Source: an uncultured cyanobacterium
GTDB lineage: Bacteria > Cyanobacteriota > Cyanobacteriia > Leptolyngbyales > Leptolyngbyaceae
Direction of reading: 5' to 3'
DNA length: 64,000 bases
NCBI GenBank assembly: GCA_963766075.1
Contig: CAVYAN010000017.1
Coordinates: forward strand, 101,727 to 165,726
Of this stretch, positions 43,498-63,228 are shown one piece after another; position 1 is the stretch's first letter; every line of letters begins with the position of its first letter. The position numbers and the translations under genes were made by a program. Under the pieces are notes generated by a model, which was not told the origin of the DNA, did not search any database, and saw nothing but the letters and a program-made list of their open reading frames with translations.

Positions 43498-43927
43498 TGC
43501 TAAACGTCCTTCAATGATGAGGTTGGGTGGTGTGGTCGAGTCAAAAAGCCCACCCCAAAACTGTGGCTCAAGCAGTTGAGAAATAAGGGTACCCGGATGG
43601 GGAGTTTTGCAGAATTCAATTCACGATTTCATCTAATTCGCATCTAATTCGCATACGACGTGGCGCTGGGAAATCGCTGACAATTGCTCAAAATAATCGC
43701 CCCGTAACGCACAGGCAAGCCGCGTGACTCGCCAAGTTGGTGGGGAACGGGATTCGCTGGTAGGGGCGATTGCACAGTGATCCCGGACCTCCACAAAAGC
43801 GATCAGTTGGCGACGAGGCTGGGATCTTGACGTGCATTTAGCCAAAGTTTTGTACCGCATTCCCGGGGGAATTGCTATAGTCTCCAACATCTCGCCCCAC
43901 TTAGTCCTCTGCAATTGGATCGTTTCC

Positions 43928-45624
43928 ATGACAGTTTCCACCCCGCCTGCCCCGCTTTCCCCCTGGAGTCCGTTGCGACAACCCGTATTTCGATCGCTCT
44001 GGCTAGCCTCGGCGTTTTCCAGCGTTGGGACCTGGATGCACGATGTCGGTGCCGCTTGGCTAATGACTTCCCTAGCACCGGGGTCGCCGTTTTGGGTGGC
44101 GCTGATGCAGGCAGCGGGGAGCTTACCCTTCTTTCTGCTGGCTTTGCCCGCCGGGGCGATCGCGGACATTATCGATCGCCGCACCTTGCTGCTGCTGACC
44201 CAAGGGTGGATGTGTCTGGTGGCCACAACCTTGGGACTATTGACCCTCACCCATCAGATGACGCCCACGCTGCTGCTGGGGCTGACCTTTGCCCTCAGTT
44301 TAGGCACTTCGATGAACCTGCCGGTGTGGCAGGCTACCATGCCCGAACTCGTAACTAGAGCTGAATTACCCGCTGCCGCAACCCTGAATGGATTGGTGAT
44401 TAATTTAGCGCGATCGGTCGGACCCGCGATCTCGGGTCTGCTGATTGCTGCAGCCGGGGGCAATCCCGGCATTGTGTTTTTGCTGAATGCCACATCCTTT
44501 TTGAGTGTGATCATCACCGTATATCGCTGGCGCAATGTGCCCAAGGTCCAAGCGTTACCGGCGGAACGCTTTATTGGCGCGATGCAAGCTGGGATCCGCT
44601 ATACGCGCTATGCGCCACAACTGCAAACGGTATTGGTGCGATCGGGAGCCTATATCTTATTTACTTGATTTAGTTTGTGAGAAACCATCCGATTTTCCTG
44701 GTATTGGTGCGATCGGGAGCCTATATCTTATTTACCAGTGCGCTGTTTGCCTTGCTACCAACGCTAGGACGGCGCGAATTGGGATTGGATGCCTTGGGCT
44801 ATGGCACAATGCTAGGCTTTTGGGGCATCGGTGGACTAGCGGGAGCCTTTATTTTGCCCAGGGTTCGCCGACGCTTTAGCACCGATCACGTCGTCGCTGG
44901 CGGCACGATTTTGCTGAGCACCACCATGCTGATTTTGGCACAGCTACGCAATTTCCCCGGCGTTTGTGCAGTAATGCTGCTGGTGGGCATCGGGTCGATT
45001 AGTGTCATGGTGAGTTTGAATGCCACGGCCCAAACTGCGGTGCCGACGTGGGTAAGAGCGCGGGCTTTGGCAATTAATCTGCTGCTGTTTCAGGGCTGTA
45101 TGACGGTGGGCAGCTTGCTTTGGGGCGCGATCGCGCAACGTTCTGGCATTCAGCTAGCTTTGACAATGGCAGCGATCGGGCTGATGGGGACGACCTTATT
45201 ATCTAAGCGCTTTTGCCTTCAATGCACTGAGAAAATGGACCTATCTGCATCACTGCATTGGGATCAGCCATTTCATTCTTTTGAACCCTGTCCCAATGAT
45301 GGTCCGGTCATGATTACGATTGAATATCGCATTGATACGGCCAAAGCTGCCGCCTTTAGTGCTGCCATGGCGGCGCTCAGCCATATTCGCCGCCGCGATG
45401 GGGCTATTTACTGGGGTTTATTTCAAGATTTATCGGAGCCGGGGCGCTTCGTGGAAAGTGTGATCGTGGAGTCCTGGATGGAGCATCGGCGACAGTATGA
45501 ACGCATCACCCTGGCGGACAAGGTGGTGGAAGAACGGGCTTGGTCGTTTCACATCGGCGCAGCTCCACCCCAGATTTCCGAGATGATCTACGCCCATCCA
45601 GGGATTGAAGACAATAAGGCTTGA
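43928..45624 (+). pseudogene. MFS transporter (DUF894/MFS_3-like) interrupted by a 71-bp insertion
   Basis: Two ORFs share the duplicated peptide VLVRSGAYILFT; removing 71 bp restores one 541-aa frame. Confidence 0.85.
44629..44735 (+). repeat. 36-bp perfect direct repeat flanking a 35-bp unique insert
   Basis: GGTATTGGTGCGATCGGGAGCCTATATCTTATTTAC at 44629-44664 and 44700-44735. Confidence 0.95.
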
Positions 45625-45705
45625 TCAAGCGATCGCTCTCTTTTCCCCATCATGGCAACACGATATTTCCGATCATGCAACAGAGATCCTCTCACCGGCA
45701 CTCTG

Positions 45706-46278
45706 TTACGGATTCGTGACAGAAGGACTGGGTATCGGCGGACTATTAGACGGCACCGTCATTGGTGAACTGGATGCCTCCGGCTTCGCCGAGGGTAGCG
45801 GTGCCGCTAAATGGTCTGCCACCAGCCGATACCCCACATAGGCCGGAACCACCATCGCCACCAAAAACGCGATCGCCACCCCCACACGTCGCCAACTCAG
45901 TCCTGACCCATACTCCGTGCGGTAGGGGTCAAAGGCCAACTGGTCCGCCTTTACCAAATCGCGTAGCGCCAGCGGTCGCTTGAATCGAACCCGGCGATTG
46001 TCCAGCTTTTCCAGCAGCACCCAGCCCGCCTGTGCTTCTTCCGCGCACAGCTTGGCAAACCGGGCAGGATCGCGAAAAGCATGCCACCGCGCCCGCACGA
46101 TTTTATACTCCCAACCATTCAACCGCGGATCGGGTCGATTGCCGCCCCGCCCGGTCACCTCCGCATTCTCATAGGTTGTCAACTTTTCTTCCTCCTCCTG
46201 TTGCTCATGCACCTGCCGCCGCCAAGTGACTATGATCGCCGTTGGCACACCCACCACCCACCACCCCAGCTCGATCAT
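45706..46278 (-). CDS. Hypothetical membrane protein
   Basis: WEYKIVRA..LCAEEAQAGWVLLEKLDNRRVRFKRP block with flanking TM segments. Confidence 0.7.
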   Translation of the reverse strand: MIELGWWVVGVPTAIIVTWRRQVHEQQEEEEKLTTYENAEVTGRGGNRPDPRLNGWEYKIVRARWHAFRDPARFAKLCAEEAQAGWVLLEKLDNRRVRFKRPLALRDLVKADQLAFDPYRTEYGSGLSWRRVGVAIAFLVAMVVPAYVGYRLVADHLAAPLPSAKPEASSSPMTVPSNSPPIPSPSVTNP

Positions 46279-63084: not shown

Positions 63085-63228
63085 GGCATAACACTCCATA
63101 TAGAGGTAGATATGCAGAATTATTTCTGCATAATGTTCTGTAGAGGGCAGTTATGCCGAATATTTCTACATAACACCCCGTGTAGAGGTAGATATGCAGA
63201 AATATTCTCTATAAATAATAGTTATGCC
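63085..63228 (+). repeat. About 41-bp-period palindrome array bracketed by GGCATAAC ... GTTATGCC
   Basis: TAGAGG at 63101, 63141, 63183; perfect TATGCAGAA-N4-TTCTGCATA at 63111-63132. Confidence 0.8.

Follow-up and report, generated by a model that had tools for sequence, protein, structure and literature searches.

A spacer-sized insert between duplicated coding sequence splits a transporter gene in a cyanobacterial genome: a probable case of off-target Cas1-Cas2 integration

The split MFS_3 transporter gene

The DNA analysed here (the window, 64,000 nt in length, corresponding to C17:101727-165726) belongs to an uncultured cyanobacterium of the family Leptolyngbyaceae, whose genome assembly comprises 126 contigs and 5.05 Mb and is 84.9% complete. 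In the window, a gene for a transporter of the MFS_3 family (PF05977) is split into two ORFs by a duplication of its own coding sequence around a short insert. This structure, referred to as the scar, is seen in the assembled sequence and has the following features:

43832..44668, + strand, 5' fragment of the split MFS_3 gene (PF05977, E 2.4e-80, profile positions 2-233 of 524)
44629..44664, + strand, first copy of the duplication (pseudo-repeat), native MFS coding sequence contiguous with the 5' half of the gene
44665..44699, no strand assigned, spacer-sized and unique insert of 35 nt, which supplies the TGA stop codon of the upstream ORF with its bases 2-4
44700..44735, + strand, second copy of the duplication, contiguous with the 3' half of the gene
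44700..45624, + strand, 3' fragment of the split MFS_3 gene (PF05977, E 2.2e-87, profile positions 219-519 of 524)

The ORF at 43832..44668 is listed from a GTG, and its true start is probably further in, near the methionine of MTVSTPP. The listed ORF of the 3' fragment (44677..45624) starts at a GTG within the insert.

The two copies of the duplication (44629-44664 and 44700-44735) agree at all 36 positions (100% identity) and have a start-to-start spacing of 71, and such a perfect pair of 36-mers cannot be due to chance. Immediately outside the copies the bases disagree on either side (C/T upstream and T/C downstream), which fixes the length of the duplication at exactly 36 nt; the sole ambiguity of register concerns its first G, which can also be assigned to the insert to give a 35-nt GT...AC duplication and a 36-nt insert. 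The 71-nt addition shifts the frame by +2. The first-pass annotation had described a perfect 36-bp duplication around a 35-bp insert, with 35+36 as an equally possible boundary and with an added stop and frameshift that knocked out a transporter, and each of these points holds: the copies are identical, the insert is as quoted, the first G fits either register, the stop and the +2 frame are present, and the PF05977 gene is in two ORFs.

In the 5.05-Mb assembly, with up to six mismatches allowed, the repeat occurs twice and the insert once. The GC content of the insert is 0.34 vs. 0.54 for the genome; none of its stretches of at least 21 nt recurs in the remainder of the genome, and its local alignment score against its own flanks is 5 of 35. 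It thus matches neither IS ends nor adjacent sequence, either of which would have refuted the earlier interpretation. No inverted repeat involving the insert was reported in 43500-46000, and in the same interval Rfam gave only a sub-threshold match to sR32 (15.2 bits vs. a cut-off of 40).

Intact homologues and the derived state of the insertion

The sequence VLVRSGAYILFT is present in both halves of the gene and aligns to one segment in four intact homologues, namely the 548-residue protein of the relative G020 (the L002 ORF) and the proteins P0087, P0088 and P0089. The duplicated 12 residues are thus single in intact relatives, with up to ~91% amino-acid identity. The last three homologues, which come from a large protein collection, are closer to the window gene than the G020 protein, and P0087 (500 residues) is 90% and 91% identical to the two halves of the window gene. 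At the DNA level, 40 relatives were compared, of which four matched and only G020 spans the site; its DNA (67% identity) lacks exactly 71 nt, as given by a gap of 87 nt in the query and of 16 nt in the subject. Computed removal of the 71 nt joins the two halves into a single frame of 573 codons, free of internal stops, whose translation has 340 identities over 534 columns with the G020 protein. A set of 86 MFS_3 homologues of at least 553 residues reached 51% identity at best and was uninformative on close alleles, and an exact 36-mer scan for the intact allele gave no matches in metagenome and genome contigs, from which records of or near this genome may be omitted. Because the relatives carry the segment once, G020 lacks the 71 nt and their virtual removal restores the frame, the insertion is derived, and the 71-nt addition is the only lesion in the MFS_3 gene. 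The intact alleles that the first-pass annotation had asked for are present in G020, P0087, P0088 and P0089.

These comparisons also bear on the footprint of an IS or MITE, or a tandem duplication with a diverged middle, as the source of the scar, which is extremely unlikely. IS target duplications are far shorter than 36 nt, and the insert is single-copy and without inverted ends, although the genome carries MITE-like and REP-like repeats and a 246-nt element with inverted ends that sits between 51-nt direct repeats. Slippage or tandem duplication is contradicted by the perfect identity of the two copies around a middle that resembles neither flank, as well as by G020, which lacks precisely the insert and one copy.

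The host CRISPR array and the adaptation genes of the lineage

The genome contains one feature that was used for comparison of lengths:

C26:26751-28474, host CRISPR array with 24 repeats and 23 spacers

Its repeats, of the form GTCGAA...CCCTTTCAGGGATTGAAAC, are 35-39 nt long (37 nt in 16 of 24, 36 nt in five, and 35, 38 and 39 nt in one each), its spacers 34-42 nt (36 nt in 9 of 23) and its units 71-79 nt. The 5' halves of the repeats vary in sequence and, in a C/T tract, in length, which gives the range of 35-39 nt. The scar, with 36+35 = 71, falls within each of these ranges and one base below each mode, and the comparison with the host's CRISPR that had been proposed for the 36+35 geometry is therefore favorable, the repeats and spacers of the array bracketing both lengths. 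The presence of the array also indicates that machinery with the same measurements has acted in the lineage.

The array looks orphan and is possibly decaying, and the heterogeneity of its repeats would be consistent with a loss of maintenance. No cas family was found among the 25 ORFs within 20 kb of it, and Cas1, Cas2, RAMP, Cas6_C and Cas6_N had no match in the genome's own 84.9%-complete assembly. A weak match to a Cas4 domain (C61:33319-33651, 28.5 bits) lies far from the array, and this family also matches the control genome of Synechococcus elongatus. A tblastn search with 60 ORFs from the Cas1 loci of six relatives returned only Uma2 nucleases, one match on C75 (50.5% identity, from an ORF of L012) and translated repeats. 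The tblastn matches on C23, C123 and C104, considered as Cas4 at contig ends, correspond instead to Uma2-family nucleases.

As a separate observation, genes for putative endonucleases of the Uma2 family are directly upstream of Cas1 in relatives (L010:173-832, L013:157-804 and L014). The genome studied here has at least three Uma2 copies (C23:7656-8243, C123:27691-28326 and C104:3-218), two of them near contig ends.

Of 60 family relatives, 44 carry Cas1 (PF01867), often in several copies and in some cases within long fused ORFs. In the relative G076, a cas6-cas4-cas1-cas2 block precedes an array whose 37-nt repeats have their 3' half in common with the host repeat, and G044 has a similar array beside its Cas1. 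The host repeat itself had no match with up to three mismatches in the 60 relatives, its likeness to their repeats being seen only through translated matches and inspection. Because Cas1 occurs in 44 of the 60 relatives and the G076 module lies beside repeats of this kind, the lineage can be taken to have adaptation machinery. The earlier supposition of cas1-cas2 in the lineage stands for these relatives and not for the genome's own assembly. The order cas6-cas4-cas1-cas2 is typical of type I-D, and a subtype for the host array would be read from the likeness of its repeats only.

Four further units of the same build

The genome has five clean units of the same build, including the MFS scar. 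All 521 perfect repeat pairs of at least 18 nt with a spacing of up to 600 were taken as input to a filter, which left 95 pairs with a repeat of at least 30 nt and an insert of at least 10 nt outside the array, 19 with an insert unlike its flanks, seven with sharp boundaries and, finally, four in which the repeat occurs twice and the insert once. A spacing of 71-75 is found in three of these four (the MFS scar, C8:68911 and C31:68517), and the fourth is the 246-nt element with inverted ends between 51-nt repeats. A mismatch-tolerant scan over spacings of 55-95 was added, from which the units on C87 and C63 were picked finally by inspection and copy counts. The four units outside the MFS_3 gene are as follows:

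C8:68911, 39-nt duplication with a 34-nt insert, from the perfect-pair filter
C31:68517, 36-nt duplication with a 39-nt insert, from the perfect-pair filter
C87:25454, 36+35 nt with two substitutions between the copies, from the mismatch-tolerant scan and inspection
C63:923, 36+35 nt with four substitutions between the copies, from the mismatch-tolerant scan and inspection

The duplication is 36 nt in four of the five units, and the insert is 34-39 nt in all of them. The five inserts are unrelated to each other, which excludes a single mobile element; four have no source in the genome, and that of C87 is a variant of a REP-like hairpin of the host. The C8 unit is just behind the hairpin downstream of an sppA-like gene, the C31 unit is in a terminator hairpin 34 nt after the gene for a photosystem I core subunit, and the C63 unit is intergenic. 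The C87 unit duplicates the last eight codons and the stop of a gene, which remains unbroken, so that the MFS scar is the only one of the five to break a gene.

Other candidates from these scans were set aside. C33:53832 has a third copy of the repeat and an insert of only 14 nt; those on C113, C7, C48, C32 and C72, at C17:21079 and at further positions are tandem or segmental repeats that have diverged; and those on C65, C5, C51 and C73 and at C17:9727 and C17:164813 are multi-copy families. C119:15501 was not counted, its repeat being from a family of at least 10 copies. At this last position (C119:15501-15600), two identical 33-nt REP-like copies surround a unique 34-nt insert, and the other copies of the C119 REP family differ by at least two mismatches; it is an ambiguous candidate for a sixth insertion of the spacer type, located within a REP element.

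The additional units are relevant to an artefact of assembly or sequencing, in which the 71-nt addition would be absent from the DNA of the organism. A fragmented and incomplete assembly as the only source of the scar, at least one other gene that looks frameshifted (sppA-like) and a homopolymer tract of variable length in the CRISPR repeats are in line with such an error. It is, however, very unlikely, since the 35-nt insert is novel sequence with a junction to the gene at either end, a structure not created by errors in an assembly graph, and the duplications differ in length (36 and 39 nt) and hence do not reflect one k-mer size. The two sister units with substitutions between their copies have aged, which also argues against misassembly.

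Origin of the inserts and choice of target sites

The exact 35-mer of the MFS insert had no matches in viral, metagenome and genome contigs, a scan to which diverged protospacers are invisible. With BLAST, the phage search returned seven records, none covering 80% or more of the insert (best E = 1), and the plasmid search one record (E = 4); in 89 relatives, the insert was not found with up to three mismatches. The C8 and C31 inserts similarly had no exact matches in viral contigs and no phage BLAST hit, so that a protospacer was sought for three inserts and found for none of the three, and no PAM was found. Type I-D systems have a reported PAM of GTN. In the spacer-integration reading developed below, the MFS insert would be of foreign origin.

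The five pseudo-repeats were compared with the host CRISPR repeat by global alignment against 3000 random genomic 36-mers, which gave P = 0.87, 0.03, 0.58, 0.08 and 0.36, and none of the five has a convincing likeness to it. The scar was accordingly rejected as a genuine CRISPR array, both because its duplication is unlike the host repeat (P = 0.87) and because its repeat is MFS coding sequence, single in the four intact homologues. The host repeat begins with G and ends with C, and the same G...C ends are found in three of the five pseudo-repeats, with a chance of ~0.003 from base composition for a pattern that was noticed post hoc. Unusually good folding, with a strong hairpin, was found at only one of the five targets, and no target motif or hairpin is shared among the five sites.

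Off-target Cas1-Cas2 integration as the proposed origin

Here it is proposed that the scar was produced by ectopic spacer integration, which is the best explanation and probably the correct one. Cas1-Cas2, the integrase of CRISPR adaptation, would have inserted a spacer-sized fragment into the MFS_3 gene and not into a CRISPR array; its source was probably a cas6-cas4-cas1-cas2 module of the kind associated with this repeat family in relatives. The two 3' ends of a prespacer of ~35 nt would attack the target strands ~36 nt apart in two staggered transesterifications, and gap filling would copy the 36 nt between the attack sites to both sides of the insert, just as a repeat is duplicated when a spacer is normally acquired. 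The product would be the 71-nt repeat-spacer-repeat unit, with the stop codon and the +2 frameshift that split the gene. Both the acting enzyme and the chemistry of staggered attack are inferred. To our knowledge, Cas1-Cas2 spacer integration is the sole mechanism that pairs a repeat-length duplication with heterogeneous inserts of spacer length. The proposal made in the first-pass annotation, an off-target Cas1-Cas2 integration, is supported circumstantially by the geometry, the unique insert, the intact alleles and the four additional units. Its description as a nascent CRISPR unit applies to the structure only, as nothing shows processing or use of the unit.

Casposons measure kilobases, carry inverted ends and produce target duplications of ~14-15 bp. 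They resemble the proposed process in having a Cas1-type integrase, staggered attack and a target duplication of fixed length, and differ from it in that the inserts found here are unrelated sequences of 34-39 nt between duplications of 36-39 nt.

Several results count against the Cas1-Cas2 reading, namely no match to Cas1, Cas2, RAMP or Cas6 in the 84.9%-complete assembly, pseudo-repeats unlike the host repeat, no hairpin shared among the targets, no protospacer for the three inserts searched, the 36-nt stagger in four of the five units vs. the modal 37 nt of the array repeats, and the insert of C87, a variant of a host REP-like hairpin. The stagger can be at most 36 nt, because chance matches only lengthen the apparent duplication. 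The stagger and the C87 insert would also suit a Cas-independent or unknown process of ruler type, placing fragments of ~35 nt at breaks staggered by 36 nt, for which an unrecognised integrase and the repair of paired nicks with captured filler DNA are candidates; targets unlike the CRISPR repeat and the failure to find cas1 and cas2 in the 84.9%-complete assembly also speak for it. Such a process is fairly unlikely, however, since no other enzyme is known to combine a repeat-length duplication with inserts of spacer length, the host array attests to machinery of the same measure in the lineage, and four of the five inserts were not copied from the genome itself. It is unlikely that all five units are due to a ruler-type activity absent from the chromosome (plasmid- or phage-borne, or non-Cas) and not to the integrase of the array; if this were true, the units would reflect a separate mutator active in nature, as opposed to a simple error of the resident CRISPR system.

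Comparison with known systems

Cas1-Cas2 is reported to integrate spacers at non-CRISPR sites of E. coli (Nivala 2018, via PMC7054753, PMC6607411 and bioRxiv 10.1101/148544), and the natural evidence given in that study is circumstantial and from two other species only (bioRxiv 10.1101/148544). As in the type I-E neo-CRISPR loci of E. coli, the units found here have one spacer-sized insert between repeat-length copies of host DNA, are in non-CRISPR chromosomal sites and are scattered over the genome. They differ from the E. coli loci in being natural, with no over-expression, in occurring in a cyanobacterium with a geometry of 36-37 nt, in that one unit knocks out a gene, and in that the integrase genes are not in the assembly.

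For Pyrococcus furiosus, full-site integration by Cas1-Cas2 at off-target sites has been shown in vitro, and these sites share sequence features with the repeat (PMC6698737). The present units would similarly be full-site integrations into non-CRISPR DNA, achieved in the P. furiosus experiments by Cas1 and Cas2 alone. Unlike the P. furiosus targets, all five pseudo-repeats are without a convincing likeness to the repeat, except for the G...C ends in three of the five.

The cyanobacterial type I-D adaptation module has been described as cas4-cas1-cas2 with leader motifs (PMC6607411). The relative G076 agrees with this description in having cas6-cas4-cas1-cas2 beside 37-nt repeats of the family of the host array; in contrast to such type I-D loci, no such module was found beside the host array or in the assembly.

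Significance of natural off-target units

Off-target integration is well documented from E. coli under over-expression and from work in vitro, and the sources cited here contain little evidence from nature. The scar is supported, on circumstantial evidence, as a further instance of this known process, here in the genome of a wild cyanobacterium. Five scars of different ages are found in one genome, and one of them inactivated a transporter gene. If Cas1-Cas2 is responsible, they would constitute a record of the natural mutational cost of CRISPR adaptation, as well as raw material from which new arrays could start. They would also provide natural data on the errors of the integrase, with four of the five units sparing genes, and would indicate a ruler of 36 nt at these sites vs. 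the 37 nt of the array. The possibly decaying array, with no cas genes found beside it, raises the question of whether adaptation modules tend to be lost because of such costs. A duplication of repeat length around a unique insert of spacer length is a signature that is easily scanned for and may explain some puzzling pseudogenes.

Other repeats and a second gene in two ORFs

The sppA-like gene for a signal peptide peptidase is present as two adjacent ORFs (470 aa and 127 aa) at L015:2588-4400 (C8:69087-70899) on the minus strand. This split is due to a frameshift or an assembly indel and bears on the quality of the assembly.

Near the end of the window (63087-63206, C17:164813-164932), two 38-nt copies with four mismatches are 82 nt apart. 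This dispersed 38-nt repeat has further copies at C31:99701, C41:96301 and C65:48904, and its middle stretch recurs at C31:99739; as a multi-copy element with a recurring middle, it was discarded as a spacer-type scar.

At C6:6762-7109, a 246-nt element with terminal inverted repeats is found between two perfect palindromic direct repeats of 51 nt, and has the appearance of a MITE within a second small element. Additionally, the genome has an abundant family of REP-like hairpins, with cores such as GGCTTCGGCTCCGCTCAG and GCTGAGCGCAGTCGAAGCCC, at C46:25781-26300, C17:9727-9830, C5:23507-23594 and many other positions, often in short tandem clusters with units of 29-58 nt.
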